Shown here: positions 31,958 to 60,141 of the stretch, piece after piece
Layout of the letters: each line of letters begins with the position of its first letter
Numbering within the stretch: position 1 is the stretch's first letter
From: Nitrospina sp.
GTDB lineage: Bacteria; Nitrospinota; Nitrospinia; Nitrospinales; JACRGP01
NCBI GenBank assembly: GCA_024648695.1
Contig: JACAVV010000009.1
Location: 40,843 to 104,842, forward strand
Reading direction: 5' to 3'
DNA: 64,000 bases
Program-made: the position numbers and the translations under genes
Notes under the pieces: model-generated
Database searches by the model: none
Seen by the model: the letters and a program-made list of their open reading frames with translations, nothing else
What the model was told of the DNA's origin: nothing

Positions 31958-31997
31958 ATATTTAGAAGGCTCATTTATTTATTGATTGGTCTCTGAT

Positions 31998-34658
31998 ATG
32001 CAGGTCATAACCACTCATCAAAGTGCCGATTTCGACTGCCTGGCCTCAATGGTTGCGGCGCAAAAACTATATCCACAAGCCAGAATGGTGTTTTCGGGTT
32101 CTGTCGAAACTCCGGTTCAAGCCTACCTGCAACATTTTAATTTTCCTTTTCAGTTGGCGCGAATAAAAGAAATCGATCTGAACGCAGTCGATTTGTTGAT
32201 CGTTGTGGATACACATGACCCTCAACGTATCGGAAAATTTGAAAGCTTGTTGAATCAACCAGCAGTTTCGGTTCACCTGTTTGATCATCATGTCGATTCG
32301 GATTCTTCTCTGTCATCTGAGAAAACCTGGATAGAAAATCGTGGTGCCTGCGCCACTCTTCTTTTCGAGCATCTAAGAAAGCAGAACATTGCGTTGACTC
32401 CTCAGGAAGCCACCCTCCTGTTGCTCGGAATTTATCAGGACACACATTCCCTGATTTCTCCATCCACCACTCCCGAAGATTTCAGGGCCGTAGCCGATCT
32501 GGTAACGATGGGAGGCGATTTAAACACAGTGGCGGATTTTGTTCAGCCTCGGTTGAATCCTGAACAGGTGGAGGTGTTGAATGATTTAATCGCCAGCCTG
32601 GAAACTACGTCTATTAATGGATTCGAAATTGCCATTGCAACAGCCGTGGTCGAAAACTATGTGGGCGACCTGGCCATGGTAGCTTCCAAAATAATGGAGT
32701 TAGAAAACCTCAACGCCCTGTTCACCATTGTGGGTCTCGACCAAAGGATGTATTTGATCGGCAGAAGCCGTACCGAACATATCAACGTGGGCTCCATCAT
32801 GCGTGAACTGGGTGGTGGTGGACATCCCCAGGCCGCATCGGCGAGCATGAACGGGCAAACTCTCGTTCAAGTGCGGGAGCGTCTGATCACTCAATTGAAT
32901 GAAAGCATTGAATCGCCCACACGAGTGGAATATTTTATGCACACTCCGCCAGTTTCTGTGAATGCCGGAGATTCCATTAAACAGGTGGAACAAGTGCTCA
33001 CACGTTGCAATTTAAACACCCTTCCCGTATTGCAAGATGATGTGCCCGTAGGTTTGATCACCAGGCAAATTGTAGAAAAAGCCATTCACCATAAAATGCA
33101 AATGGAGCCGGCCAGCGACTTGATGATTCGTGAATTTTCCGTATGCCATCCCGACAGCTTTTTTAAAGATTTGATCCCCATCATCGTGGAGGAAAAACAA
33201 AAACTGGTTCCAGTGGTCGAACCGCAAACAGAAACATTGATCGGTGTGGTCAGTCGCGGCGACCTTTTGCGTGTCCTGTATGGCGATTTTTCAAAATACG
33301 CCACCCTCGCACCGAACCTTTTTTTCAATGAGTCTCCGGTCCCTTTCAAAAATATTAAAAGCCTGATGAAAGAACGCCTTCCAAAAAAGATAATGGATTT
33401 GATCCAGTCGATCATTGCCGCCGGTGACGCGACCGGTGTTTCGGTTTTTGTGGTGGGTGGGTTCGTGCGGGATCTTTTACTGGGTATCGAAAATTTGGAC
33501 CTGGATGTGGTGGTCGAAGGAGACGGTATTCAATTTGCCCAGGCACTGAAAGGGAAATTGGGTGGCAGGGTGCGGAGCCATCAAAAGTTTGTCACAGCGG
33601 TTTTGATTCTTGAAGATGGTTTTAAAATCGATATTGCATCAGCCCGCATGGAATATTATGAACGGCCCGCGGCCTTGCCCACGGTTCGAATGAGTTCCAT
33701 CAAATCCGATTTGTTTCGCAGGGATTTTTCATTCAACAGTTTGGCCATTCAATTAAATGGAGCCGATGCGTACAAACTGATCGATTACTTTAACGGTCAG
33801 CGGGATCTGAAAAACAAGGCGGTCCGCGTCCTGCACAACCTTAGCTTTATTGAAGACCCCTGCCGAGCATTCCGGGCGGTGCGTTTTGAACAGAGATTCC
33901 AGTTTACCATTGGAAAGCAGACGGAAGCCTTTCTGAAAAACGCTGTTCAAAAAGGCTTGATCCATCAACTGAGCGGATCCCGATTGATGAATGAGTTCAC
34001 TTTGTTGCTAAAGGAAACCAGACCCGCTCATTGTCTTCTGCGGATGAAGGACTTGGGTCTTTTGCAGGTGATTCATCCCGAGTTTTTGCAAACTCCGGAG
34101 AGCCAGGAAGCTCTCGCCAAAATAGAAGAAACCCTATCCTGGTCGGACATCGTAGTCATGCCCAAGCCACCGGATCCTTGGAAAGTGTATTTGCTGGGAC
34201 TGGTTTATTTTCTTGGACCCAACGATTTTGAAATCTGGCTAAAACAAATGCACGCCCCGATGAAATTGGCAAAACAACTGAAGGAAGATTGCCTGGGAGT
34301 GTGTTCCGGATTGAAGACATTTGAAGGGAAAAAACAATTTTTAGCCAGCGAAGTTTACGAAGTATTTTCCGGCTTATCCCCGGAGGCCATTATCTTTTTA
34401 ATGGTCCTGACAAAAAACCCGGAAGTCCCGCGGCAGGTTCTGCTTTATTTAACGCAATATCAGGCCAGGGGAAAGATTGCACTTTCTGGCGAAGATTTAA
34501 TTAATATAGGGATTTCCACTGGCCCCATCTTCAGCAAAATTTTCAAAGCCTTGCGAACCGCACGGCTGGAGGGTGAAATCACCACTCGGGAAGAAGAGAA
34601 AGCTTTCGTCGAAAAATACTTTAAAAGCAAAATTCATACAGCCGAAAAGGCAGATTGA
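31998..34658 (+). CDS. DHH/DHHA1 phosphoesterase - tandem CBS - tRNA nucleotidyltransferase/poly(A) polymerase fusion protein
   Basis: N-terminus HQSADFDCLASM...VVDTHD...DHH (DHH motifs) and GGGGHPQAASA (DHHA1). Two CBS-like units follow. The nucleotidyltransferase head is VFVVGGFVRDLLLG..NLDLDVVVEGD...RRDFSFNSLA. Confidence 0.85.
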   Translation: MQVITTHQSADFDCLASMVAAQKLYPQARMVFSGSVETPVQAYLQHFNFPFQLARIKEIDLNAVDLLIVVDTHDPQRIGKFESLLNQPAVSVHLFDHHVDSDSSLSSEKTWIENRGACATLLFEHLRKQNIALTPQEATLLLLGIYQDTHSLISPSTTPEDFRAVADLVTMGGDLNTVADFVQPRLNPEQVEVLNDLIASLETTSINGFEIAIATAVVENYVGDLAMVASKIMELENLNALFTIVGLDQRMYLIGRSRTEHINVGSIMRELGGGGHPQAASASMNGQTLVQVRERLITQLNESIESPTRVEYFMHTPPVSVNAGDSIKQVEQVLTRCNLNTLPVLQDDVPVGLITRQIVEKAIHHKMQMEPASDLMIREFSVCHPDSFFKDLIPIIVEEKQKLVPVVEPQTETLIGVVSRGDLLRVLYGDFSKYATLAPNLFFNESPVPFKNIKSLMKERLPKKIMDLIQSIIAAGDATGVSVFVVGGFVRDLLLGIENLDLDVVVEGDGIQFAQALKGKLGGRVRSHQKFVTAVLILEDGFKIDIASARMEYYERPAALPTVRMSSIKSDLFRRDFSFNSLAIQLNGADAYKLIDYFNGQRDLKNKAVRVLHNLSFIEDPCRAFRAVRFEQRFQFTIGKQTEAFLKNAVQKGLIHQLSGSRLMNEFTLLLKETRPAHCLLRMKDLGLLQVIHPEFLQTPESQEALAKIEETLSWSDIVVMPKPPDPWKVYLLGLVYFLGPNDFEIWLKQMHAPMKLAKQLKEDCLGVCSGLKTFEGKKQFLASEVYEVFSGLSPEAIIFLMVLTKNPEVPRQVLLYLTQYQARGKIALSGEDLINIGISTGPIFSKIFKALRTARLEGEITTREEEKAFVEKYFKSKIHTAEKAD

Positions 34659-43920: not shown

Positions 43921-44072
43921 AAACTATCCCCATAATATATTCCCTATAAATTCATGAATTAAAAGGATTTTTTGGAATATTTTCTTACCCCCCTAAAGCA
44001 CGCTCTTTTAAGAAATTGATCCCACCTCAAAATCACATTATTTTAAAATTAATAATGCAAAGGAGTTTGAAT

Positions 44073-44300
44073 ATGCTTGAATCCAGAATCAGAAAAATCG
44101 GAACTTCTTCCGGCCTCATTCTCCCAAAAGAGATTTTAAAGAAGTTGCATTTTTAAGATGGCGACTAGATATTAATATCAGAAGATTCGGGCGGGACTTG
44201 TAAAATCACCCCATACGATCCGGATTTTAAAAAGCATCTGGAAGCCATTGAAGAGGGCATATCCCGCTACAAGAATACGTTGCGGGAATTGGCTAAATGA
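44073..44300 (+). pseudogene. AbrB/SpoVT-fold antitoxin (Phd/MazE-like) with two in-frame stop codons
   Basis: The single frame reads MLESRIRKIGTSSGLILPKEILKKLHF*DGD*ILISEDSGGTCKITPYDPDF...RELAK*. An AGGAG lies 8 nt upstream. IGTSSGLILPKEIL..L....GD is the swapped-hairpin AbrB-type motif. Confidence 0.75.
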
Positions 44301-44685
44301 AAGAACCCTTTTGGATAACCAAACCCATTGTTCTTTCCCTTCACACCAAACTTGTCATAGAATTTGGGGAACGGCCGGGTATCAGTGATGAAGATTTGCT
44401 GGACTCTGCCCTAGCCCGTCCCCGTCAAATTTATTCTTACGACACCCTGACTTGTTTGTTTTAGCCTCGGCAAACATTTCCAGAATTATCAGAAATCACC
44501 CATTTCTGGATGGCAACAAGCGCACCGGATTTATGGTCGGTTTCGATTTTCTCTACCAGAACAAAATATTACTGGATTCCCCGGAGCCCTTGGCGGTAAA
44601 AATAGTCATTGACCTCACCGCAAAAGATATAAATGAAGACCAATTAGCCATTTTGTTACGGGAAAACTCTAACAGCTTAACCTGA
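44297..44685 (+). pseudogene. Doc/Fic-family toxin (death-on-curing) with a frameshift
   Basis: The first frame reads MKEPFWITKPIVLSLHTKLVIEFGERPGISDEDLLDSALARPRQIYSY and ends at TAG 44462-44464. The continuation in another frame (44452-44685) carries the Fic motif HPFLDGNKRTG. The ATG overlaps the antitoxin TGA (ATGA). Confidence 0.8.
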
Positions 44686-44730
44686 GTAAAACTCAACAAA
44701 GCTGGCCCATCCGATACATCTAAAAACACT

Positions 44731-46779
44731 TTAGGCGACCACCCGGTTGCGGCCTTCTTTCTTAGCTTGATACAGGTATTGATCCGCCTTGTTAAGGAGC
44801 TGTTCTAGTGATTCAACCCCTTGGTTGACGCTGACCAATCCCATACTAAAAGTAATGTTAATGGATATCTCGCCGGATTTGAAACAGGATTTCTGGATGG
44901 ATTCAAGCAGTTTGCTTGTGAAGCTCAATCCTCCTTCTTTTTGGGTTTGCACGAGAAGAATCAAAAATTCTTCTCCCCCCCAACGGGCTACGGAATCCTG
45001 TTCCCGACAGTTGGATTTTAATATTTCTGATACAAATTTCAGAACTTCATCACCTTTTAAATGCCCGTAGGTATCGTTCACTCTTTTGAAAAAATCAATA
45101 TCTGCCAGGACCAGGGAGTAAACGACTCCAAACCTCCGATATCGGGTATGCTCGTACTCCAGGCGTTGCACCATCCCTCGCCGGTTGAGAAGGTTGGTCA
45201 AAGGGTCTATGAGCGAAACACATTCCAGTTGATGGATCAAGTCCTCTTTTTCTTTTAGCAGAAAAACATGATCGGATATATCCCGAGCAATAGTCGAGGC
45301 ACCTATAATTTCACCTTTTCCATCGTAAATGGGCGAAACGGTGAGAGAGACATGAATACCTTTCCCATCCTTTTTTTGCATCTGGGTCTCGAAACTATTC
45401 AGGGTTTCTCCCCGCTTGATTTTTTCAAGAATATAGCTGTATTCAGCCTGTCGATCCTTCGGAACAAGAATGTGGGTCCCTTTTCCCATAATTTCAAAAT
45501 CTGAATAACCAAAAATTTTTTTCGCCGCGTTGTTCCAAAATGTGATGGTTCCATCCATTTGCTGACCCCAAATGGCATCCTCGGTATTTTCCACAATGGA
45601 AGCCAATTGTTCGCGGGCGTCGACTGCCATCTTTTGGTCTGAAATATCACGGGTTATTCCGATAAACATAGGCTGACCTTCAGACTCCATTACCGAAATG
45701 CCAAGTTCCAGAGGAAAGGTGGTTCCATTGCGACGCAGTCCAATAACCTCCCTGCCGATACCTATGATTTTCGCATGGCCTGTTTCCAGATAATTTTTCA
45801 AATAACTGTCATGTTGAGATGAATAAGGCTCCGGCATCAACATCTTGACGTTTCGACCGATCACCTCCTCAGCCAGATAACCAAAGATTCTCTCGGCGGC
45901 CGGATTAAAATCCTTGATTTTTCCCCTTTTATCAATGGTTATTATTCCGTCTATGGTATTATTTAATACCGCTTCAATGCGGGTTTGTTTTTCCAGAAGT
46001 TTGTTTTCAAATATTTTTCGCTCACTGATATCCTTCACTATCCCGGTAAACATGGTTTTATCTTCCAGGTGAGCTTCACCGATGGAGAGCTCGAGTGGAA
46101 ACTGGGCACCATTTTTTTTAAGACCCACCACTTCCCGACCAATGCCAATGATCTTTGCTTTTCCCGTTTTCAAATAATTTTGCAAATAATTGTCATGTTC
46201 CGCCTGAAAAGGTTCAGGCATCAGCATTTTTACGTTCTGGCCAATCACCTCATTCGCCTGATATCCGAATATTTGTTCGGCGGCTGGATTAAAGGTCTGG
46301 ATTATCCCGGAGATATCAATGGTGATGATTCCATCAATCACATTATCGATGACGACTTTTGCAAGTTCCTTTTCATCATTTAATTTTCTTTTATATTGAT
46401 CAAGAACATTTATATTACATGAAATGGTTGAAGCTCCGATAATCTCTCCTTCTCCAGATTTAATAGGGGAAACTCTCAAGAACACTTCTGTCCGCGCACC
46501 ATCCTTATTAACCCGAATGGTCTCCAATTCCTCTATGGTTTCTCCATTCCTGATTTTCCTTAAATATTGTTCAGCCTCCTGTTTGCGGTCGTCAGGAAGA
46601 AGAAAGGCGCAGTTTTTTCCGAGAACTTCCTCGGCAGAATACCCGTAAATTTTTTCTGCCGCCTTGTTCCAACTGATAATTTCTCCCGTTAAGCTCTTCC
46701 CAATCACAGCATATTCGGCCCCATCCACAATGGATGCTAAAATATGTTGATAGTCTATCTGTTTGTGGATCATTTGCAA
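44731..46779 (-). CDS. Four-PAS diguanylate cyclase (PAS-PAS-PAS-PAS-GGDEF); the two central PAS domains are FixL-type heme-PAS-like
   Basis: C-terminal GGDEF domain (DPLTNLLNRRG, DIDFFKRVNDTYGH, RWGGEEFLILL). Four PAS units are visible. Units 2 and 3 contain GQNVKMLMPEP..(E/Q)HD(N/S)YL.NYL.TG.AKIIGIGREV.GL(K/R)(K/R)NG..FPLEL. Confidence 0.88.
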   Translation of the reverse strand: MQMIHKQIDYQHILASIVDGAEYAVIGKSLTGEIISWNKAAEKIYGYSAEEVLGKNCAFLLPDDRKQEAEQYLRKIRNGETIEELETIRVNKDGARTEVFLRVSPIKSGEGEIIGASTISCNINVLDQYKRKLNDEKELAKVVIDNVIDGIITIDISGIIQTFNPAAEQIFGYQANEVIGQNVKMLMPEPFQAEHDNYLQNYLKTGKAKIIGIGREVVGLKKNGAQFPLELSIGEAHLEDKTMFTGIVKDISERKIFENKLLEKQTRIEAVLNNTIDGIITIDKRGKIKDFNPAAERIFGYLAEEVIGRNVKMLMPEPYSSQHDSYLKNYLETGHAKIIGIGREVIGLRRNGTTFPLELGISVMESEGQPMFIGITRDISDQKMAVDAREQLASIVENTEDAIWGQQMDGTITFWNNAAKKIFGYSDFEIMGKGTHILVPKDRQAEYSYILEKIKRGETLNSFETQMQKKDGKGIHVSLTVSPIYDGKGEIIGASTIARDISDHVFLLKEKEDLIHQLECVSLIDPLTNLLNRRGMVQRLEYEHTRYRRFGVVYSLVLADIDFFKRVNDTYGHLKGDEVLKFVSEILKSNCREQDSVARWGGEEFLILLVQTQKEGGLSFTSKLLESIQKSCFKSGEISINITFSMGLVSVNQGVESLEQLLNKADQYLYQAKKEGRNRVVA

Positions 46780-47214: not shown

Positions 47215-47448
47215 ATGCAAAAATCAGGATTCTTGATATTTTTTAAGGACTATCAGATGCTCTACATCATAGGTGGCATACTAACCGTCCCCTTGGCTAT
47301 TTACTTTTATTGCCGTGCGGTTGCTTCTCGAAAATTGTACCAGTGTGCGAAATGCGGCGACCGGTTTAAGGTAGAACTGGAAGACCTGGAATGTTGCATC
47401 ACTTGCGGTGCCCCCCTTGATCACTCTTCAGTCAGCCGTCTGCAATGA
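47215..47448 (+). CDS. Small membrane protein with C-terminal zinc-ribbon (CxxC...CxxC)
   Basis: TM helix (LYIIGGILTVPLAIYFY) followed by CAKCGDRFKVELEDLECCITCGAPL. The start is either 47215 or ATG 47257. Hypothetical. Confidence 0.45.
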   Translation: MQKSGFLIFFKDYQMLYIIGGILTVPLAIYFYCRAVASRKLYQCAKCGDRFKVELEDLECCITCGAPLDHSSVSRLQ

Positions 47449-48059
47449 AATCAGCGGCAGGATTCTCCAGATTTTTTTTCCTGCAAAGTTTTTTTATTCA
47501 CCTCAGGCATTATTTTCCGTTTTACTTTGTTCACAAACCCCTTTGTACTCGACACAAAAAGGATTCTTTACAATGGAGCCAGGTTTTCTTTTGCCGGGGT
47601 TGTTTTTTTCTTTATGCTGGAGTCGTTACGAGCCTTAGCTCTCTCATGCTGGAATGGAATGAGGTTCCACCTGCCATCCTAAACAGGGTCGCGCCCATCG
47701 GATTCCTTTTGATTATTTCAGCCAGCATTCCGGATATTTATCAACACTGGCCGCGACCGGTAAAAGATGGTTTGAGGTTTGCCACTGGGTTTCTCCCTGT
47801 TTTCCTGCTGATTCTATCCGTACAAAGCGGATGGCTGATGGGACTCACCACCACGATGTTAATCGTTCTAGTCTGGAAAATTTTCAACATGAGGCGTGCA
47901 CCTCTTTCTGCAAGTGGGTGCGAAGGTTGTGAGGAACTGGATGGTGGAAAAGTTTGTTCCGGTTATCGCCTTCAGGCAGAACGGATCATGAAAGTCGAAA
48001 ACATTTTGAGCGAACGCGCAATGTATCACCTAAAACCGAACACGAGGACCGAAACATGA
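47445..48059 (+). CDS. Hypothetical polytopic membrane protein with cysteine pairs
   Basis: 204-aa ORF whose ATG overlaps the upstream stop (ATGA). Several hydrophobic helices, with CRGC and CEGCEELDGGKVC motifs. I recognise no family. Confidence 0.45.
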   Translation: MKSAAGFSRFFFLQSFFIHLRHYFPFYFVHKPLCTRHKKDSLQWSQVFFCRGCFFLYAGVVTSLSSLMLEWNEVPPAILNRVAPIGFLLIISASIPDIYQHWPRPVKDGLRFATGFLPVFLLILSVQSGWLMGLTTTMLIVLVWKIFNMRRAPLSASGCEGCEELDGGKVCSGYRLQAERIMKVENILSERAMYHLKPNTRTET

Positions 48060-48763
48060 TCGATCCAAAAGATTTGGGCGGCGGAACCCGTCCCGACCTG
48101 GGAGATAAAATCCTGATCACTCCAAATGACGGATTTGAGGGCTATGCAATTCAGGACCATAAAGGCATCGTATGGGGCGTTTCGATGCGGTCCAAAGATG
48201 TGGCGCAGGATTGCACCATGTCCTGCAAGCAATTGACGGGAGGGGAACTGACATCATTCACAGAACTGGAAGACGAATCGCGTCAAAAAGCCATCGAGCG
48301 GATGATGAAAATGACGCGGCGGATCAAGGGCAACGCGATCACTAATTTCCACTTTGAAACCCAGGGCGGATCAGGCATGGGGGTGATCATTGTCCAGGGC
48401 ACTGCCGTGGTGATAGAGCCCATCAAGGATTATGTTCCCCGTGAAGCATGGCCAAACTTAATGCTATCTGCTGTGAATGTCCAATTGGCCGGACAACAGG
48501 AAAAGGGCAACCCTCAACCGGAACCCGGACCAGATTCTGTAAAAGGAACAGGACAAACACCCGAGAAAGTGTTTACCCTGGCCAAGGTGAAAGTGGTCGA
48601 TCAAAACCTGTTCGCATTTTGCCCGAGTTGCCATACTCGTTACGAAGTTTCAAAAATAATTGGCGATGCCCGGTTCGATGCCCACCCGGACGTTCCCGGC
48701 CAGCAGGTCCGGTGCAAAAAATGCGAAACGGAGTTCACACTTCCTGAGCTGGACGACTCGTAA
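48056..48763 (+). CDS. YbjQ/UPF0145-like domain fused to a C-terminal MJ0042-type zinc finger
   Basis: The ATG at 48056 overlaps the upstream TGA (ATGA). EGYAIQDHKGIVWGVS...LTGGELTSF...RQKAIERMMKMTRRIKGNAITNFHFET...VIIVQGTAVV follows the YbjQ pattern. The C-terminus is CPSCHTRYEV...VRCKKCETEFTLPE. Confidence 0.65.
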   Translation: MIDPKDLGGGTRPDLGDKILITPNDGFEGYAIQDHKGIVWGVSMRSKDVAQDCTMSCKQLTGGELTSFTELEDESRQKAIERMMKMTRRIKGNAITNFHFETQGGSGMGVIIVQGTAVVIEPIKDYVPREAWPNLMLSAVNVQLAGQQEKGNPQPEPGPDSVKGTGQTPEKVFTLAKVKVVDQNLFAFCPSCHTRYEVSKIIGDARFDAHPDVPGQQVRCKKCETEFTLPELDDS

Positions 48764-51775: not shown

Positions 51776-52858
51776 TCACACCTTGCTGAAGCTCAATTCT
51801 CTTTTGGCCTTTTTGATATCAGACTCAACCATCATTTCGACCAACTTTTCAAATCCGACTTTGGGAGTCCAGCCCAGCTTTTCCTTGGCTTTTGTGGGAT
51901 CGCCGATCAGTTGATCGACTTCGGTGGGACGAAAAAACCTGGGATCCACACGAACCACCACGTCGCCCGGTTGCAATACTTCTTTCAATTCATGGAAGAA
52001 TACTTCCTTGACCCGACCCACCTCGTTCAAGCCCGATCCCGACCACTCAATTTCCACGCCACCATACTTGAATGCCCGCTCACAGAATTCCCGCACCGAC
52101 CTGGTAACTCCTGTAGCAATAACGTAGTCACTCGCCGTCTCCTGTTGAAGCATCAACCACATCGCTTCTACATAATCACCCGCATAGCCCCAATCGCGTT
52201 TCGCTTCCAGGTTTCCCAGAGTGATGCATTTTTGCAGGCCGTGCAAAATGCGGGCGACTCCCAAAGTGATCTTGCGAGTCAGAAAACTTTCTCCCCGGCG
52301 CGGCGATTCGTGATTAAACAAAATTCCATTGCAGGCATACAGATCATAACCGTCACGATAATTGACGGTAAGCCAATAACTCAAAACCTTAGCGGCGGCA
52401 TAGGGACTGCGGGGGGAAAAAGGTGTGGTTTCGGTTTGAGGGACTTCCCTAACCTTGCCAAACATTTCACTGCTGGAGGCCTGGTAAAATTTAATGTTGG
52501 AGTCAATGTCGCGAATCGCATCCAGAAGGCGCACGGTTCCTGTACCGGTCACGTCAACAGTGTATTCAGGAATTTCGAAACTGACCTTCACATGGCTCTG
52601 TGCGGCCAGATTATAAACCTCGTTCGGTTGAATTTTCGTAAGTGCCGAGCGCAGGGAATTGGAATCTCCAAGGTCTCCGTAAATCAGGTTCAGTTTGGAT
52701 TCCATTCCTGCAAATTCACCGTGCAAGTGGTCGATCCGCTCACGGGTGATGGAACTGCTTCTACGAATCAGGCCATAAACCTCATAACCTTTAGACAACA
52801 GAAACTCTGCCAGATAAGAGCCATCCTGGCCGGTAATGCCTGTGATTAAAGCTTTCAT
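51776..52858 (-). CDS. gmd: GDP-mannose 4,6-dehydratase
   Basis: [65 protein letters not shown]. Confidence 0.95.
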
Positions 52859-52928
52859 GGGAATAATATTTCTGTAAAGTTGGGTGCTTGTGACCGGATG
52901 TTTACCAATTCAAGTGAGCGTTCAAAGC

Positions 52929-54374
52929 TTAACTGCTATTTTTTACCGGTCGACCATAAGCGTCTTCGTAGCGAATGATGTCTTCCTCTTTCAGGATGTC
53001 GCCCAGTTGAACTTCCAGAATAGAAAGGACCGAATCACCAGGATTGCTAATCCGGTGTTTGCTTCCTTTAGGAATAAAAATGGATTCCGATTTATTCAGG
53101 TTAAGAATTTCCTTATCCTTCTGTACCCGAGCGGTTCCACTGAGGACGGTCCAGTTTTCGGAGCGGTGTTCATGAGATTGCAAACTCAACATTTCTCCAG
53201 GGTTCACATCTATTCGTTTGACCAAATGCTCTGTCCCTGCCTCAAGAACCGTATAGGATCCCCAGGGTTTATGCACGGTGGGGTGCAGAGTCGCTTGCGG
53301 TTTTCCTTCTTTTTTTATAGTTTCCACGATTTTTTTAACATCCTGTGCCTGGTTTTTATCACAAATTAACAGGGCATCCGGAGTATCAACAATGATCATA
53401 TTTTCGATGCCCACCGTTGCAATCAAGCGCCCTTCTCCCTGAATGATGGACCCTTTGCTGTTGAGCGAAACAACGTTACTGGAAAAAACATTTCCATTTT
53501 CGTCTTTTTCATAAAGGTCTTCCAGCGTGGTCCAGCTTCCCACATCATTCCATTCCATGGAGCAGGGAATCATAGCCACTTTTTCGGCCTTTTCCATTAT
53601 CCCGAAATCCACCGACTCGTTTGGAAGCCTTTCAAAAATACCAGCACCCTCGGGATCCAGCAAACGAAACGGATACCTGCCCTTTTGGGCAACCAGATGA
53701 AAATACAAATTGTCCAAATGCTCAAACAAATCGGGTAACAATTGCCGAATGTGTTCCAGAATAGTAGAGACCTTCCAGAAAAAGACCCCGCAATTCCAGA
53801 AATAATTACCATCATCAACAAAGCGTTGGGCGGAAATCAAATCGGGCTTTTCGGTAAAACGCTCTGCCATGAAAACCTGATCGAACCCGCTCAATGGTAG
53901 ACCTTGCTTGATGTAACCGTAACCGGTTTCCGGCCTGTGGGGCTGAGCACCAAGGGTCACCAGATAACCTTGTCTCGCGACTTCCACAGCTTTCTTGACG
54001 GTCCTTTCAAAAACTTCGGTGTTGTTGATGATATGGTCCGCTGGATAAATTCCCATCACCTCCTGCGGATCTGACTCAGCCAACACCCGTGCCGCCAGGC
54101 CAATTGCCGCGGCAGTGTTTCGGGCGACAGGTTCTGCGATCAGGTTTTCTGAATGGAAACCAAAAGGAACCAACTGCCGGCAAGTCTCCAAGGCATGAGA
54201 TTCATTGGTCACCAGAAACAGGTTCTCCACAGGCGAAAGAGCAAGTAAGCGTTCTGCGGTCGCTTGCACCATGGTTTTTGATCCAACAATCCGGATCAAC
54301 TGCTTTGGAAACAACTCTCTGCTTTTGGGCCAAAACCGGGTTCCACTTCCTCCGGCCAATATGACATTGAACAT
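52929..54374 (-). CDS. manC: Bifunctional mannose-1-phosphate guanylyltransferase / mannose-6-phosphate isomerase (type II PMI)
   Basis: N-terminus ILAGGSGTRFWPKSR (nucleotidyltransferase). C-terminal cupin KPWGSYTVL...VNPGEMLSLQSHEHRSENWTVLSGTA. Confidence 0.92.
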   Translation of the reverse strand: MFNVILAGGSGTRFWPKSRELFPKQLIRIVGSKTMVQATAERLLALSPVENLFLVTNESHALETCRQLVPFGFHSENLIAEPVARNTAAAIGLAARVLAESDPQEVMGIYPADHIINNTEVFERTVKKAVEVARQGYLVTLGAQPHRPETGYGYIKQGLPLSGFDQVFMAERFTEKPDLISAQRFVDDGNYFWNCGVFFWKVSTILEHIRQLLPDLFEHLDNLYFHLVAQKGRYPFRLLDPEGAGIFERLPNESVDFGIMEKAEKVAMIPCSMEWNDVGSWTTLEDLYEKDENGNVFSSNVVSLNSKGSIIQGEGRLIATVGIENMIIVDTPDALLICDKNQAQDVKKIVETIKKEGKPQATLHPTVHKPWGSYTVLEAGTEHLVKRIDVNPGEMLSLQSHEHRSENWTVLSGTARVQKDKEILNLNKSESIFIPKGSKHRISNPGDSVLSILEVQLGDILKEEDIIRYEDAYGRPVKNSS

Positions 54375-54472
54375 GTTGCTAATAGCTTGGAGTGAGGGTT
54401 TTCGAGGACGCTTCAGGCAAGTCAGGGCGATTCCCTGATGACACTATTGGTACCTTATTCTTTTACAATCAA

Positions 54473-56287
54473 TTAATCAAGTTCAAATTCTTCTTTCCAA
54501 TCGGTTTTTTCTTCCCAGGCAGGCTGCTGTTTTTTATCCAATACGAGGTTTTCCAAAACCAAGAAATCCATTTCCGTACGCATGAAACAACGATACGCAT
54601 CTTCCGGCGTGCATACAATGGGTTCGCCTCGCACATTGAAAGAGGTGTTGATAAGCACAGGACAATCCGTTTCCTTATTGAATCCATCAATCAATTCATA
54701 ATACAAAGGATTGGTTTCCCGCTCCACAGTTTGAACGCGGGCCGAGTAATCCACATGCGTGATAGCAGGAATTTTGGACCGGGGAATGTTCAGCAAGTCA
54801 ATACCAAACAGCTTCTTCTGCTCATCGGTCATCTCAATTTTTATCTCATCCCTAACCGAAGCTACCAAAAGCATGTAGGGGCTGTCTGCATCCATATCGA
54901 ACCATTCGCTCACCTTTTCCCGAAGGACCGAGGGCGCGAAAGGCCGAAACGATTCCCGATACTTGATCTTAAGGTTCATGGTCGACTGCATTTTCGAGCT
55001 TCTTGGGTCACCTAGAATACTGCGTCCTCCCAAAGCTCGCGGCCCGAACTCCATCCTCCCCTGAAACCAGCCGAGAACTTTGTCCTCAGACAAATTTTTT
55101 ACGAGTGTAGATATCAGTTCGCTTTGCGAATATTCCTGGTAGCTCGCGCCTATGCCGTCCAAATAGGATTTTATTTCTGCTGTTTTAAATGAAGGGCCGA
55201 GATAAGCTCCCTGCATCTGGTCCCTCCCATTGACATCACGCGGTTTATCCAATACCTGGTTCCAGGTGTAGAGAGCAATCCCCAGGGCGCTACCCGCATC
55301 GCCTGCGGCGGGTTGAATCCATAAGCGATCGAAGATTCCTTCCTTCAGGATTTTGCCGTTACCAACACAATTCAAGGCAACACCGCCAGACAAGCACAGG
55401 TGGTTTTTCCCGGTCATTTCTCTGACGTACCGGGACATGCGAAGCATGATCTCTTCAGTAACTGCCTGCAAAGAAGCGGCGATATCCATTTCTTTTTGAG
55501 TGAGTTTCGTTTCCGGTTGGCGCGCCGGCGTTTCGAACAATTCATCGAATTTACTATTCGTCATTGTCAGCCCGCCCAGATAATTGAAATAATCCATATT
55601 CATCCGAAAGGAACCATCCTCCTTCAAGTCGATGAGATGATCCTTTATCAACGAAACGTATTTGGGCTCTCCATAAGGAGCCAGTCCCATGACCTTGTAC
55701 TCTCCGCTATTGACCTTGAATCCCAGGTAATATGTAAAAGCGGAATAAAACAATCCCAGCGAGTGCGGAAAGCTCAGTTCTTTGAGCATTCGAATTTTGT
55801 TGCCCTCGCCCACACCAATACTGGAGGTAGCCCATTCCCCTACTCCATCCATAGTAAGGATGGCCGCTTCCTGAAAGGGCGAAGGGAAAAACGCGCTGGC
55901 GGCATGAGACTCATGATGCTCGGCAAAAATAACGGGTCCTGCAAAATTCAAGTGCTCTCGAATATTTTTTCGGGTCCAGAGCTTTTCTTTCAGCCAAACG
56001 GGAATGGCCTTCAAATAGGAAGACAAACCACTGGGAGCAACTCCCAAATAGGTTTCCAGAATCCGTTCAAACTTGATAAACGGCTTGTCGTAAAATCCCA
56101 CATAATCCAGATCCCTGGTGGTGATACTTCCGGCCTCAAGGCAGTACTCAATGGCTTTTGCGGGAAAGCCGGAATCGTGTTTCTTTCGTGTGAAGCGTTC
56201 TTCCTGTGCCGCGGCAATGATTTTACCATCCTGGACAAGACAAGCGGCAGAGTCGTGGTAAAACGCGGAGATGCCTAGAATATTCAT
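54473..56287 (-). CDS. NodU/CmcH-family carbamoyltransferase
   Basis: MNILGISAFYHDSAACLV..G.IIAAAQEERFTR, HHESHAASAF, LSGGVALNCV, FRPFAPSV, TSFNVRGEPIVCTPEDA. Confidence 0.9.
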   Translation of the reverse strand: MNILGISAFYHDSAACLVQDGKIIAAAQEERFTRKKHDSGFPAKAIEYCLEAGSITTRDLDYVGFYDKPFIKFERILETYLGVAPSGLSSYLKAIPVWLKEKLWTRKNIREHLNFAGPVIFAEHHESHAASAFFPSPFQEAAILTMDGVGEWATSSIGVGEGNKIRMLKELSFPHSLGLFYSAFTYYLGFKVNSGEYKVMGLAPYGEPKYVSLIKDHLIDLKEDGSFRMNMDYFNYLGGLTMTNSKFDELFETPARQPETKLTQKEMDIAASLQAVTEEIMLRMSRYVREMTGKNHLCLSGGVALNCVGNGKILKEGIFDRLWIQPAAGDAGSALGIALYTWNQVLDKPRDVNGRDQMQGAYLGPSFKTAEIKSYLDGIGASYQEYSQSELISTLVKNLSEDKVLGWFQGRMEFGPRALGGRSILGDPRSSKMQSTMNLKIKYRESFRPFAPSVLREKVSEWFDMDADSPYMLLVASVRDEIKIEMTDEQKKLFGIDLLNIPRSKIPAITHVDYSARVQTVERETNPLYYELIDGFNKETDCPVLINTSFNVRGEPIVCTPEDAYRCFMRTEMDFLVLENLVLDKKQQPAWEEKTDWKEEFELD

Positions 56288-56352
56288 TTAGTAAACCTGT
56301 TATTATTTTGGTTTGGAATAATTCTGGATAAATAGAGGATTGGTATTTTAGC

Positions 56353-57867
56353 TTATGGAACCTTTAATAGTTTATACAGTTCCTGTCCTTGAGCCAATAG
56401 AACTTGCCAAGGCCCGCCATAATCCGGATGATCTATAAAGGTCGGAGATTCCATCAGGTATACATTATTCAAATGGAATAGTTCATCAAGTTCCGCTTTG
56501 GCAGATTCCCCATTTTTCTCCTTTAAAAACCTTTTGCTTTCCTCAATATGACGTTTCGCGGTTGAAGACGCTAATTCAAATGCCTTTCCCAAATTTTCAT
56601 TTTGGTATCGGGTAAGAATTTGATGCAATTGCCGGGCATGCAAGCGATTGTTGTTAATTCTGTCAAATTTTTCTCCCGGATCCGCATACAAATTATACAG
56701 ATGATGCTGAACAATGCCATCAATCCTTCTTTGCACCAGTTTCCAGTTTCCGGTCCTCACTGCATACAAGCGATTTTTCTTCTCGTCTTCCGGACATTGC
56801 CAGCCACAAAAGCTGGTTTCCACAAAGGCAAATTTATTTTGCCTTTCCTTTTCACCAAATACAAGAGGCAAAAGTGATTCACCCTGCACGTGTCCTGAAG
56901 GGGTCCGTCCCAAAATTTCAAAAAGAGTCGGCATGATGTCCACCTGCTGGACCTGATCCTTAATGTCGATTTTTTGTTGAATTCCCGGTATTTTGATCAA
57001 AAGAGGGACTCGGATGACTTCATCATAAACCGTAGCTTTCATGGAGGTGGAAGCGTGACCGATGAACCCGTGTTCCATCAACTCCTCACCATGATCGGCT
57101 GTAAGCACGACAATTGTTTTCTTCTCCAATCCGCTGGACTTCAAATATTCGAACACCGGTGCGAGCAGGCTGTCCTGATAAAGCACGTCTTCATCATACA
57201 AATCGGTGACAGGTTCTTTATCCTTTTCTTTCAGCGTGATTTTCTCTCGCGTCAGTTTTTCGTTGCCGGATAATAACTCCAAAACCGTTTTAGATAAAAC
57301 CGACGGATCCTTAAAAAACGACCCCTTAAAGGGTCTGGGCGCATTGTAAGGTAAATGCGGTTCGCGATAATGGTACCAGGCGAAGAATTTCTTATCACGG
57401 TACTTTTGTAAGGTTTGGATCAGCGCCCCTTTTTTTAACCCGTCCGTCCACCCCTGGTTTCCATAGTTTTGTTGCGTGTCGTATCCCAGGGTGATGTAAC
57501 CGTTTTGTTGAAGTTGCTTAATCGGTGTCCAGTTATACTTGTCGAAATACTTTCCTTTGGCATCCATTCCATGAACCGCTGGATACAATCCGGTAAAGAT
57601 GGAAATTATGGAAGGGCTGGTCCATGATGCCTGGCTGATGACTTGTGAAAACCTGGGTGAGTTAGAAAAAAATTTATCAATATTGGGAGTGGTCGGACGC
57701 GAATAGCCGTAAATTCCCATATGATCGGGGCGCAGGCAATCTACGGTGATCAGCAAAATATTGTAGTTCTGAATCTGTTCAGCAGAATGCGCGGCGGTGT
57801 GTCTGGGTCCCAACAGACCCAAAATACAAATCATCAAAGTCAGGACAAAGGGCAGGAGGCGAACCAT
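56353..57867 (-). CDS. Exported sulfatase-like hydrolase/transferase (alkaline-phosphatase superfamily)
   Basis: Signal peptide MVRLLPFVLTLMICILGLLG. ITVDCLRPDHMGIYGY is the metal-binding region. SWTSPSIISIFTGLYPAVHG occupies the position where FGly sulfatases carry C/S-x-P-x-R. ADHGE is present. The C/S-x-P-x-R motif is absent, so a Thr-nucleophile phospho/sulfo-transferase type is more likely than a true arylsulfatase. Confidence 0.75.
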   Translation of the reverse strand: MVRLLPFVLTLMICILGLLGPRHTAAHSAEQIQNYNILLITVDCLRPDHMGIYGYSRPTTPNIDKFFSNSPRFSQVISQASWTSPSIISIFTGLYPAVHGMDAKGKYFDKYNWTPIKQLQQNGYITLGYDTQQNYGNQGWTDGLKKGALIQTLQKYRDKKFFAWYHYREPHLPYNAPRPFKGSFFKDPSVLSKTVLELLSGNEKLTREKITLKEKDKEPVTDLYDEDVLYQDSLLAPVFEYLKSSGLEKKTIVVLTADHGEELMEHGFIGHASTSMKATVYDEVIRVPLLIKIPGIQQKIDIKDQVQQVDIMPTLFEILGRTPSGHVQGESLLPLVFGEKERQNKFAFVETSFCGWQCPEDEKKNRLYAVRTGNWKLVQRRIDGIVQHHLYNLYADPGEKFDRINNNRLHARQLHQILTRYQNENLGKAFELASSTAKRHIEESKRFLKEKNGESAKAELDELFHLNNVYLMESPTFIDHPDYGGPWQVLLAQGQELYKLLKVP

Positions 57868-57870
57868 GCG

Positions 57871-58923
57871 TTATAAACGTTTCATTTCTTCAAGGTCTGC
57901 ACGGATTTCAGGAAGTGATAACAGTAACCTTTCAATTTCTTCCATATTTAACTGGCGAGTGTTACTGGAAGTGTAATCTTCTAACATGGCTTCTTCTACC
58001 CTTCCCGTATCCAGGTATTTGCTGTAATTCAAATCACGGTCGTCCATTTTTATACGATAATAATCTCCCAGGTCCTCAGCCTTTCGAAGTTCCTCCGTGG
58101 TAGCTAGAGTTTCGTGGATTTTTTCTCCGTGGCGAATCCCTATAGTATTTAACTCCACGCTGGAATTGAAGATTTTTTTCAGAGCCAGAGCCAGATCGTG
58201 CACTGTGCAGGCCGGTGATTTCCGGATAAACAAATCTCCCTGCCGCGCATTCACCAGGGTGAACAAAAGCAAATCTATGGCGTTTTGAAGCGGGAGCAAA
58301 AACCGCGTCATGTGGGGAACCGTGATGGTGATAGGTTTTTTCTTTTTGATCTGGTTAACAAATAAAGGAATCACAGAGCCTCGGGAATACATCACGTTTC
58401 CGTACCTTAAGGTCGAGACCACCGTTTCATCCGGACCCAGTTTTCGTGCGAAAGATTGTGAGGTCCGTTCCATCAAGCCTTTGGTCATACCCATAGTGTT
58501 GACCGGATAAACGGCTTTGTCCGTACTCAGGCAAACCACACGCACCACCTTGTGATTTACAGCCGATTCCACCACATTTTGACTGCCCACCACGTTCGTG
58601 AGAACGGCTTCCATGGGGAAAAACTCACAGGACGGCACCTGCTTCAATGCGGCGGCGTGGAAAACCAGATCGACGTTTTTCATGGCGTTGTCGACGCTGT
58701 CGCGCGAACGCACATCGCCAAGATAGAATTTCACTTTGGGATTGCCCAACTGAATGCGCATCATCTCCTGCTTGAGCTCATCGCGGCTGAAAATGCGCAC
58801 TTCTTTAAAATCTGTATCTTTCAGAAAGCTCATCAAAGCGTTACCGAAGGACCCGGTGCCGCCGGTGATCAGTATCGTTTTTCCTTTAAATGCGTCCACG
58901 AAACGCCCTTTCCCGGTTTTCAC
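57871..58923 (-). CDS. UDP-N-acetylglucosamine 4,6-dehydratase family (CapE/FnlA/WbjB-like, CapD-type short form)
   Basis: KTILITGGTGSFGNA, RIFSRDELKQ, HAAALKQVPSCEFFPMEAV.TNV.G, VCLSTDKAVYPVN.MG, RYGNVM.SRGSVIPLF, MTRFL. Confidence 0.88.
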   Translation of the reverse strand: MKTGKGRFVDAFKGKTILITGGTGSFGNALMSFLKDTDFKEVRIFSRDELKQEMMRIQLGNPKVKFYLGDVRSRDSVDNAMKNVDLVFHAAALKQVPSCEFFPMEAVLTNVVGSQNVVESAVNHKVVRVVCLSTDKAVYPVNTMGMTKGLMERTSQSFARKLGPDETVVSTLRYGNVMYSRGSVIPLFVNQIKKKKPITITVPHMTRFLLPLQNAIDLLLFTLVNARQGDLFIRKSPACTVHDLALALKKIFNSSVELNTIGIRHGEKIHETLATTEELRKAEDLGDYYRIKMDDRDLNYSKYLDTGRVEEAMLEDYTSSNTRQLNMEEIERLLLSLPEIRADLEEMKRL

Positions 58924-59022
58924 TTGAGGTGGATGGATTTGAAACCGCTACTTCGCAACCTATAATAAACGGGAATCTGCAATGCAGACAAGCAAATATT
59001 CCCTCAACAATCTCAATGGATA

Positions 59023-60141
59023 TTACTGATTCGTTTTGATAAAAGAGAGAACATGATTAGGTATCCAGCCAACAAGAAAGCTGAACACGACAACGATAAC
59101 CGTGAAAATCCAGAAGGAGGCAGGTGAAAAGGTCACAAGCACATCATCCCGAGACACCGGGCTTTCATAGAAATGGCCTTCCGCTTTGGGTAACTCCGAC
59201 GCTATTTTTTTGACTTTATTTTCTGGCCATTTAAATCCGGCAAGGTGCAGAATTCCAGGAAAGTATTTTTCCAAAATGAGATTCTCTTTATATGCAACCA
59301 GCAATTTGCCCTTTTCTTTATAACGGTCGCGGCGAAACACATGAACCAGCACTTCCATCTTGTATTTATCCAGTGTTCTTTGATTTTTTAGATAGGAATG
59401 CATCTTTACCGGATACAATTCTTTTACACTTTGAACGTAGGAGTCGGTTAAATTCTGATTTTTGTAAATCAACTCTTCTATGGAATAATGCGAGTAAAAA
59501 TTTCCTGTTTCGTCATCTTTATGGAGGAAACCAAAATCTGAAACCGTCAAAATAAACGCGGCTAAAATGATGCTTCCCATTCCAACTCCAGCCCCCAATA
59601 GCCGCAAACCTGATCTATCCAGGGGGCATAGTTTAGGGCGAATGGTTTTGGCTATCAGGATAAGAGCTAGTGCGGAACTGCTTAAATTCAGATAAATATC
59701 CGGGAGCACCCCCACTCTCGATGGCAAATAAAACTGGACCCATTCGTCCAGGATTCCAATGACTCCCACCAATAGCCAGGTTAAAATATAAGCCGCCACA
59801 TTATTTATGCGTTTATTTATGGGCCGAAAATACAGCCAAGTAAGGATTCCGTATTCTGCCAGATGAATTTGCTCTACAACATTACTAATGATTGAAAGGA
59901 AATAAATATAAATTCCGACGATAACGATCAACCAAACCAGGCGTGAAAGCTTATGGCTTTTTTTGTCTGTTCCAATTTTGACAACCCATAAAAGAAAGGC
60001 CATTCCCAAAACGAACAAAAAACCCAGTTTCAATTTTTCCGATCCCAAAACATCGAAAACGGTTTTCCACCACCCGGAAACCACATTAAGGGTTGCAAAA
60101 ATAAAAACTGTAAAGGCCAGCGGCGGCCACCATAATTTCAT
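59023..60141 (-). CDS. Polytopic membrane protein with VanZ-like N-terminal region
   Basis: Multiple TM helices. GILDEWVQFYLPSRVGVLPDIYLNLSS resembles the VanZ motif (DE-x-x-Q-x-x-x-P-x-R-x-x-x-x-x-D-x-x-x-N). The C-terminal half is unassigned. Confidence 0.5.
   Translation of the reverse strand: MKLWWPPLAFTVFIFATLNVVSGWWKTVFDVLGSEKLKLGFLFVLGMAFLLWVVKIGTDKKSHKLSRLVWLIVIVGIYIYFLSIISNVVEQIHLAEYGILTWLYFRPINKRINNVAAYILTWLLVGVIGILDEWVQFYLPSRVGVLPDIYLNLSSSALALILIAKTIRPKLCPLDRSGLRLLGAGVGMGSIILAAFILTVSDFGFLHKDDETGNFYSHYSIEELIYKNQNLTDSYVQSVKELYPVKMHSYLKNQRTLDKYKMEVLVHVFRRDRYKEKGKLLVAYKENLILEKYFPGILHLAGFKWPENKVKKIASELPKAEGHFYESPVSRDDVLVTFSPASFWIFTVIVVVFSFLVGWIPNHVLSFIKTNQ

Follow-up and report, generated by a model that had tools for sequence, protein, structure and literature searches.

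The turnover of cyclic di-GMP (c-di-GMP) under the control of heme-binding PAS domains is well studied only for the phosphodiesterases DosP and AxPDEA1. A census from 2022 places heme-PAS domains exclusively on phosphodiesterases and lists globins or hemerythrins as the sensory parts of oxygen-sensing cyclases (PMC8846402 Table 3), and a cyclase with a hemin-binding PAS domain, KoBdcA, was reported in 2026 (PMC13141831). In FixL, Arg220 hydrogen-bonds the bound oxygen, Ile215, Leu236 and Ile238 make up the distal pocket and Arg206 and His214 bind the heme propionates (PMC10765370). Within the FixL/DosP cluster of PAS domains (cluster 3) a histidine on helix F-alpha is the main determinant of heme binding (PMC10468136). 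The gene described here lies on the minus strand of a 64,000-nucleotide stretch of Nitrospina sp. DNA (assembly GCA_024648695.1, contig JACAVV010000009.1, positions 40,843 to 104,842), which is referred to below as the window, and encodes a protein with the domain order PAS1-PAS2-PAS3-PAS4-GGDEF. Its sequence suggests, at a probability that we put at roughly 0.7, a cytoplasmic and probably dimeric sensor diguanylate cyclase with two heme-PAS units that responds to oxygen.

Predicted heme-PAS units and cyclase domain

A Pfam scan of the open reading frame finds four PAS stretches followed by a GGDEF domain at residues 523-679, and the second and third of the PAS stretches stand out by their likeness to FixL. 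PAS2 aligns without gaps to the heme domain of RmFixL (1d06, E 1.2e-29) and to that of BjFixL (1dp6, E 2.5e-29), and PAS3 aligns equally gap-free to BjFixL (1dp6, E 6.6e-32). These alignments span about 110-118 residues, and the heme-PAS domain of DosP comes next at about 1e-17. A hidden Markov model (HMM) of the heme-PAS domain, made from two FixL domains together with PAS2 and PAS3 themselves, gives 207.8 bits for PAS2, 207.9 bits for PAS3 and 42 bits for PAS1. Foldseek comparisons with the BjFixL heme domains (1drm, 1dp6, 1lsv and 2cmn) return template modelling (TM) scores of 0.92-0.94 and root mean square deviations of 1.3-1.6 Å at 48-50% identity, and the top match overall is full-length DosP over approximately 585 columns. 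The full-length AlphaFold model, which was computed from an alignment of 47 sequences, shows four PAS cores linked by helices at residues 123-146, 252-274, 380-398 and 502-522. Its mean predicted local distance difference test (pLDDT) is 83.9 and its predicted TM score (pTM) is 0.34, so that the packing of the domains in it is not reliable. In the long helix of each heme-PAS core (residues 191-205 and 319-333) the model places a histidine, H195 in PAS2 and H323 in PAS3.

The residues that line the heme pocket of FixL are shared to a large extent. With the BjFixL numbering anchored on His200 (the index of the PDB SEQRES record is the canonical number minus one), both units agree with BjFixL in the columns of His200, Asp201, Tyr203, Ile215, Ile216, Gly217, Gly219 and Arg220 and likewise in those of Phe232, Pro233, Leu236 and Ile238. 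Each combines the features that mark a PAS domain of the FixL/DosP type, namely similarity in fold and sequence, a histidine on F-alpha, the distal arginine and a hydrophobic distal pocket. The proximal histidine of this type is H200 in BjFixL, H194 in RmFixL and H77 in DosP, and its distal arginine is situated on G-beta. The position of the distal ligand Met95 of DosP is taken by isoleucine in both (I213 and I341), and since a DosP-type distal methionine is missing, a five-coordinate heme similar to that of FixL is expected. On sequence grounds PAS2 and PAS3 are genuinely homologous to the heme-PAS domains of FixL and DosP with their F-alpha histidine.

The original prediction, which was made from the letters of the window, had proposed a cyclase with two FixL-type look-alikes at 46015-46359 and 45631-45975, and these ranges code for residues 141-255 and 269-383. 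It had placed the candidate proximal histidines at codons 46195-46197 and 45811-45813, which is exact, and had read an intact GGEEF site, which is found at residues 601-605. The BjFixL string that it quoted agrees with the PDB sequence, and the resemblance to FixL that it saw is far beyond chance, as the ungapped matches above demonstrate. An alignment to FixL was expected to put the histidine at the proximal position, and both histidines fall in the BjFixL H200 column within the predicted F-alpha helix; inspection of the pocket finds the distal arginine and the distal Ile/Leu/Ile set in both units. The motif given as common to the two units is indeed present in both, except that PAS3 opens with GRNV and not with GQNV.

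The C-terminal domain matches the GGDEF models with 145.5 bits for PF00990 (cut-off 23.8) and 167.2 bits for TIGR00254 (cut-off 37.4). It opens with DPLTNLLNRR and carries the block DIDFFKRVNDTYGHLKGD at residue 560, followed by REQD-x5-GGEEF; the DIDFFKRVNDTYGHLKGD block, with its metal and substrate contacts, and the RxxD inhibitory site presumably correspond to the respective residues of PleD. Its matches in the PDB include 3ign (E 1.8e-38), PleD, WspR and the LOV-activated cyclase 8c05 (residues 468-682). The domain is thus predicted from its motifs to be an active, product-inhibited cyclase. DIS motifs close PAS2, PAS3 and PAS4.

Domain order and relatives

The four PAS domains fall into two classes. 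PAS2 and PAS3 (B-type) are 63-64% identical to each other (74/116), PAS1 and PAS4 (A-type) are 49.5% identical (55/111), and pairs across the two types reach 28-31%. The original prediction had taken both pairs for paralogs in a mirrored A-B-B'-A' arrangement. For PAS2 and PAS3 the high identity stands, but they are equally close (62-68%) to units of unrelated proteins such as P0014 (relatives are cited by their search numbers), which reflects conservation across the family and provides no evidence of a recent duplication. A recent duplication within the gene was for this reason rejected. PAS1 and PAS4 do belong to the same class at the identity given above, but the nearest kin of PAS4 are the PAS domains that precede GGDEF in P0088 and P0108 (53-54%), with that of P0073 at 49.5%. 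These three proteins have the layout PAS/heme-PAS/PAS/GGDEF or PAS/GAF/heme-PAS/PAS/GGDEF and share the sequence of the linker ahead of GGDEF. In addition, positions 17-233 of the NCBIfam model of DosP, which cover its heme-PAS and PAS domains, align to residues 271-486. The kinship of PAS4 together with the collinearity with DosP points to heme-PAS/PAS/GGDEF as the conserved module, as in DosP. The mirrored arrangement as a functional unit was accordingly rejected, given that PAS4 groups with the pre-GGDEF PAS domains and PAS3-PAS4-GGDEF follows the DosP order. The protein consists of a heme-PAS/PAS/GGDEF module that is extended by one more heme unit and, at the N-terminus, by a PAS domain of the class of PAS4.

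Against the PDB, PAS1 and PAS4 reach 1e-7 to 1e-9 at best, and the structures that they match are generic PAS and LOV domains. The best matches of PAS1 lie at E 3e-9, where the histidine column of RmFixL is aligned to an alanine. PAS4 is predicted to be a relay or dimerisation domain. Residues 49-55 of PAS1 (46615-46635, minus strand) read GKNCAFL, which recalls the LOV motif GRNCRFLQ including its cysteine. PAS1 as a LOV flavin photosensor was considered and rejected: the NCAFLL stretch is without the flavin-binding arginine and glutamine, there is no glutamine on I-beta, and the scores are 123.9 for the YtvA_fam model (cut-off 250) and 95.1 for the LOV histidine kinase model (cut-off 450).

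A search with the whole protein returns 120 matches, mostly histidine kinases that score through repeated FixL-type units, and its ranking favours proteins with many such units. The heme-PAS HMM splits the PAS units of these matches into 384 with at least 120 bits and 74 with less than 80 bits. Strong units number three in 75 proteins, four in 20 and five in 9, while two occur in 9, one in 4 and six in 2. The pocket is kept almost throughout the 384 FixL-type units, with His200 present in 380, Arg220 in 381 and Leu236 in 380, and Ile215/Ile216, Gly217 and Gly219 near-invariant. Asparagine stands in the Arg206 column in 289 and lysine in the His214 column in 346, so that these two departures from FixL, which PAS2 and PAS3 share, are the norm of the family. 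In 221 of 265 adjacent pairs, and in this protein too, successive proximal histidines lie exactly 128 residues apart.

Histidine kinases with two to six FixL-type units at a period of 128 residues are found throughout the set (P0002-P0120); in P0002, for instance, the units lie at residues 83, 211, 339, 467, 595 and 723. No discussion of such tandem FixL-type arrays was found in the open-access literature. A pair of heme units had originally been called unusual in comparison with single-heme sensors, which does not hold, as the relatives mostly carry between two and six FixL-type units with the 128-residue period, and the Aer2 family already offers characterised multi-heme PAS sensors (PMC10107281).

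What distinguishes the protein is the output to which its array is joined. Five of the 120 whole-protein matches have a GGDEF domain, and the heme units in these five number two in this protein, three in P0025 and one in each of P0073, P0088 and P0108. Searched exhaustively with PAS3 alone, 1.84 billion representatives yield 70,847 proteins under a threshold of E<=1e-10 and 7,856 under one of E<=1e-30, counts that are upper bounds only because generic giant multi-PAS proteins are included, and a GGDEF motif occurs in none of 60 FixL-type representatives among the matches listed. With the PAS4-GGDEF module as query, P0165 alone of 120 relatives bears a FixL-type unit that contains the histidine. 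The word-indexed search with residues 386-682 omitted P0001, the public copy of the protein, and also P0073, P0088 and P0108, whose PAS domains are 50-54% identical to PAS4, and absence from its list is hence weak evidence of absence. Species-representative genomes and metagenome contigs gave no orthologue of the same architecture, and the matches in them are at the level of the GGDEF domain (28-41%). As far as the sequences surveyed go, multi-heme arrays rarely have a cyclase as their output, tandem FixL-type units themselves are common, and the protein is a new and rare domain combination of well-known parts.

Proposed signalling and competing explanations

In the proposed mechanism H195 and H323 on helix F-alpha would each ligate a single b-type heme, the former in PAS2 and the latter in PAS3. 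In the ferrous state the heme would be five-coordinate as in FixL, and oxygen bound to it would be hydrogen-bonded by R215 and R343. A ligand-dependent change at the FG loop as well as the beta-sheet would then be passed, by way of the DIS motifs and the helices that connect the domains, to PAS4 and to the linker at residues 502-522, where a shift in the geometry of the GGDEF dimer would alter the rate of c-di-GMP synthesis. PAS3 is nearer to the output, to which it is connected via the cofactor-less PAS4, and is probably the main transmitter, and by analogy with Aer2 the upstream PAS2 may tune or sharpen the response. Precedents exist for the individual elements, as control of GGDEF dimers by coiled coils is established for LOV diguanylate cyclases (PMC12805367), a helix-linked relay for DosP (PMC11543664) and a division into modulators and transmitters for the tandem PAS-heme domains of Aer2 receptors (PMC10107281).

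A number of points weigh against an oxygen-responsive cyclase of this kind. Heme binding, ligand binding and enzyme activity are all argued from homology, and the response to O2, NO or CO that the original prediction had named is an inference too. The BjFixL Arg206 column holds asparagine (N201 and N329) and the His214 column lysine (K209 and K337) in the two units, and the propionate-binding pair that belongs to the signalling switch of FixL is thus absent from PAS2 as well as from PAS3. FixL variants at Arg206/Arg200 keep heme and ligand binding, but they autoxidise and lose the regulation of the kinase by oxygen (PMC10765370). In light of this behaviour the coupling in the present protein may differ from that of FixL, or the heme may be a redox sensor. 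The relative placement of the domains in the AlphaFold model is unreliable at its low pTM, and a heptad test for coiled coils in the four linker helices is not significant, as 180 to 1621 shuffles out of 2000 did equally well. None of the neighbouring genes points to a pathway or a partner. Finally, FixL-type hemes bind CO and NO in addition to oxygen, and the nitrogen metabolism of the host makes NO a live alternative.

What the hemes sense might accordingly be NO, CO or the redox state of the iron, Fe(II) or Fe(III), in place of oxygen, with the asparagine at the Arg206 position leading to ready autoxidation. This residue is found in both units and in the 289 family units counted above, variants of SmFixL at R200 autoxidise in air and show impaired signalling (PMC10765370), PDB titles record crystals of FixL heme domains with NO, CO and CN bound, and the host is a Nitrospinota bacterium. 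The oxygen-stabilising distal arginine is nevertheless kept in 381 of the 384 units and in both units here, the distal hydrophobic residues are retained along with it, and the characterised homologues FixL, DosP and AxPDEA1 are all oxygen sensors (PMC8846402 Table 3); a signal other than oxygen is on balance unlikely. It is possible, if doubtful, that just one of the two units works as a sensor and that the other, with or without heme, serves as a spacer or dimerisation element. PAS3 of VvAer2 gives reversible signalling on its own, PAS1 being largely dispensable and PAS2 only a modulator (PMC10107281), and relatives with a single unit on the same PAS-GGDEF module exist in P0088, P0108 and P0073. 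All scored pocket residues are however kept in both units with no sign of relaxed constraint, and each scores about 208 bits against the heme-PAS HMM.

An ordinary PAS-GGDEF cyclase, in which PAS2 and PAS3 resemble FixL while binding another ligand or none, is very improbable. About 40% of the sequences in the FixL/DosP PAS cluster are without the histidine and a few of its members bind Fe-S (PMC10468136), for which reason membership of the cluster alone is no proof of heme binding, and the assignment of heme to this subfamily is itself made by homology. Across the 384 units, however, conservation of the histidine, the distal arginine and the whole pocket stands at 98-99%, and PAS2 and PAS3 have about 50% identity to heme domains that have been crystallised. 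The reading that we prefer remains that of a cyclase regulated by oxygen through two hemes. A more elaborate form of it, in which the two hemes differ in oxygen affinity or cooperate across the dimer (four hemes) and so produce a band-pass or switch-like cyclase tuned to the very low oxygen of the oxygen-minimum waters that Nitrospinota inhabit, is a tentative and rather unlikely proposal.

If the protein does hold two hemes and an active, regulated GGDEF domain, it would provide a clean, soluble model that could reveal how a FixL-type heme signal is transferred to a cyclase and what tandem heme units add, be it tuning, cooperativity or redundancy. The question of what tandem units add also arises for the multi-heme-PAS kinases, a large group that has apparently received no study. 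It would also link the availability of oxygen to lifestyle decisions in a Nitrospinota lineage. Should the hemes differ in affinity or cooperate, the protein would be the first multi-heme sensor of the FixL type to be defined biochemically as driving c-di-GMP synthesis and would offer a handle on the kinases with two to six units at 128-residue spacing. All parts and the logic of the system are already known, and current understanding is not overturned.

Genomic surroundings and comparison with known systems

The features of the gene are collected in the table below. The protein is predicted to be soluble and cytoplasmic, without a membrane segment. The identical public copy, P0001, has 680 residues and begins at the ATG two codons past the TTG; it carries no annotation and is already public.

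Table. Positions in the window of the cyclase gene, its domains and its predicted functional residues
Feature	Coordinates	Strand	Remarks
Whole gene, PAS1-PAS2-PAS3-PAS4-GGDEF protein	44731..46779	-	682 residues from TTG start; 680 residues from ATG at 46773
PAS1, A-type generic PAS (residues 9-122)	46414..46755	-	PAS fold; Ala in proximal-His column; no cofactor signature
PAS2, first FixL-type heme-PAS unit (residues 140-257)	46009..46362	-	FixL matches, heme-PAS HMM, pocket columns
H195, predicted proximal heme ligand of PAS2	46195..46197	-	BjFixL H200 column; predicted helix 191-205
R215, counterpart of distal Arg (BjFixL R220, DosP R97) in PAS2	46135..46137	-	I213, two residues before, is at the place of DosP Met95
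PAS3, second FixL-type heme-PAS unit (residues 267-385)	45625..45981	-	FixL matches, HMM, Foldseek
H323, predicted proximal heme ligand of PAS3	45811..45813	-	Predicted helix 319-333; 128 residues past H195
R343, distal-Arg counterpart in PAS3	45751..45753	-	Alignment columns
PAS4, A-type PAS without His (residues 392-504)	45268..45606	-	Matches place of cofactor-less PAS of DosP
Helical linker (residues 502-522), from PAS4 DIS motif to DPLTNLLNRR of GGDEF	45214..45276	-	Predicted helix; sequence kept in P0073, P0088 and P0108
GGDEF diguanylate cyclase domain (residues 523-679)	44743..45213	-	PF00990, 3ign match, DIDFFKRVNDTYGHLKGD block
RxxD inhibitory (I) site, REQD	44995..45006	-	Five residues ahead of GGEEF
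GGEEF active-site motif (residues 601-605)	44965..44979	-	Sequence

The cyclase gene is isolated, with flanks free of open reading frames of about 660 bp upstream and about 870 bp downstream, and its neighbours are housekeeping genes, namely asd, leuB, truA and msrA and the genes for an Mrp/NUBPL ATPase, a PCP_red protein, a YbjQ protein and a DnaJ-MORN protein. No conserved neighbourhood is present around the relatives P0108 or P0025. An Rfam scan of the window finds no RNA family, and scans for promoters and terminators remain at or below the expectation from shuffled sequence. Downstream of the gene, 44016-44690 (plus strand) holds a probable decayed Fic/Doc toxin gene. The open reading frame at 44452-44685 (77 residues) matches only the C-terminal third of the Fic Pfam model (positions 61-92 of 93, E 2e-7) and contains the motif HPFLDGNKR; the upstream part seemingly continues in other frames (short open reading frames at 44248-44388 and 44297-44464), and a 46-residue open reading frame at 44016-44156 could be its antitoxin. 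On the other side a divergent open reading frame at 47445-48059 (plus strand, 204 residues) is without a Pfam match, looks hydrophobic and has a cysteine-rich stretch CEGCEELDGGKVC. It overlaps the start of 47954-48763 (plus strand, 269 residues), which has a YbjQ domain and a weak match to a zinc ribbon.

A cluster for sugar nucleotides and polysaccharide lies approximately 5 kb from the cyclase gene at 51776-60141 (minus strand) and encodes GDP-mannose 4,6-dehydratase, a mannose-1-phosphate guanylyltransferase/isomerase of the ManC type, a carbamoyltransferase, a sulfatase and a CapD-like Polysacc_synt_2 protein. The production of exopolysaccharide is often controlled by c-di-GMP, and nothing in the window ties this cluster to the cyclase gene. 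At 31986-34658 (plus strand) the window encodes an 890-residue homologue of the A-adding tRNA nucleotidyltransferase/poly(A) polymerase with fused DHH, DHHA1 and CBS domains, which is also present on the public contig that carries P0001. Proteins related to it are 49-61% identical and come nearly all from Nitrospinota, those with names being Nitrospinae, Nitrospinaceae or Nitrospina. The host is a divergent Nitrospinota bacterium. Nitrospina and its kin are nitrite oxidisers that are common in low-oxygen seawater, and because of this habitat an oxygen-dependent control of c-di-GMP is plausible.

Among the described systems KoBdcA of Kosakonia oryzendophytica shares the type of output, as it is a cyclase whose PAS domain binds hemin via a histidine, as shown by hemin reconstitution, and whose activity follows oxygen (PMC13141831). 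Compared by description, it differs from the present protein in being a membrane protein with a single PAS domain that acts at the cellulose synthase together with a partner cyclase and a phosphodiesterase. The Aer2 chemoreceptors (PaAer2, VcAer2 and VvAer2, with one to three PAS-heme domains) likewise have tandem b-heme PAS domains joined by helices, of which the distal one transmits and those upstream modulate (PMC10107281). They belong to an unrelated cluster, however, in which the heme ligand is a histidine on E-eta, a tryptophan on I-beta stabilises the oxygen and the output is HAMP/MCP (PMC10107281, PMC10468136). Sensory units of the same type occur in the uncharacterised multi-unit FixL-type histidine kinases (P0002, P0014, P0101, which is named 'Sensor protein FixL' of Paludibacterium paludis, and Bradyrhizobium hybrid kinases), whose units are 62-68% identical to PAS2 and PAS3 and have the same Asn206 and Lys214 and the same 128-residue spacing. 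The output of these kinases is HisKA/HATPase, with a receiver domain in some of them, whereas the present protein ends in PAS-GGDEF.

With FixL itself (B. japonicum PAS-B and S. meliloti; 1drm, 1dp6, 1d06 and 8js5) the protein has the fold, the pocket residues and the FG-loop glycines in common. It differs in having GGDEF as its output in place of HisKA/HATPase, two heme units in place of one and the changes of Arg206 to Asn and of His214 to Lys, and there is no FixJ partner nearby. It scores 309.9 bits against the NCBIfam equivalog model of FixL (NF041777, cut-off 850), and Pfam shows no kinase domains. DosP (PdeO) of E. coli, with the order hPAS-PAS-silent GGDEF-EAL (9cdr and 9cmf), stands beside AxPDEA1 among the related systems and has an hPAS-PAS-GGDEF part that is collinear with PAS3-PAS4-GGDEF, and in DosP too an enzyme of c-di-GMP turnover is under the control of a heme-PAS domain by way of helix-linked domains (PMC11543664). 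The equivalog model of DosP (NF008467) gives 228.6 bits against a cut-off of 857. DosP degrades c-di-GMP by its EAL domain, its cyclase being silent (EGTQF), and has a single heme-PAS domain with a six-coordinate heme that is ligated by Met95, whereas the present protein has GGEEF and no EAL domain, isoleucine at the place of Met95 and two FixL-type units.

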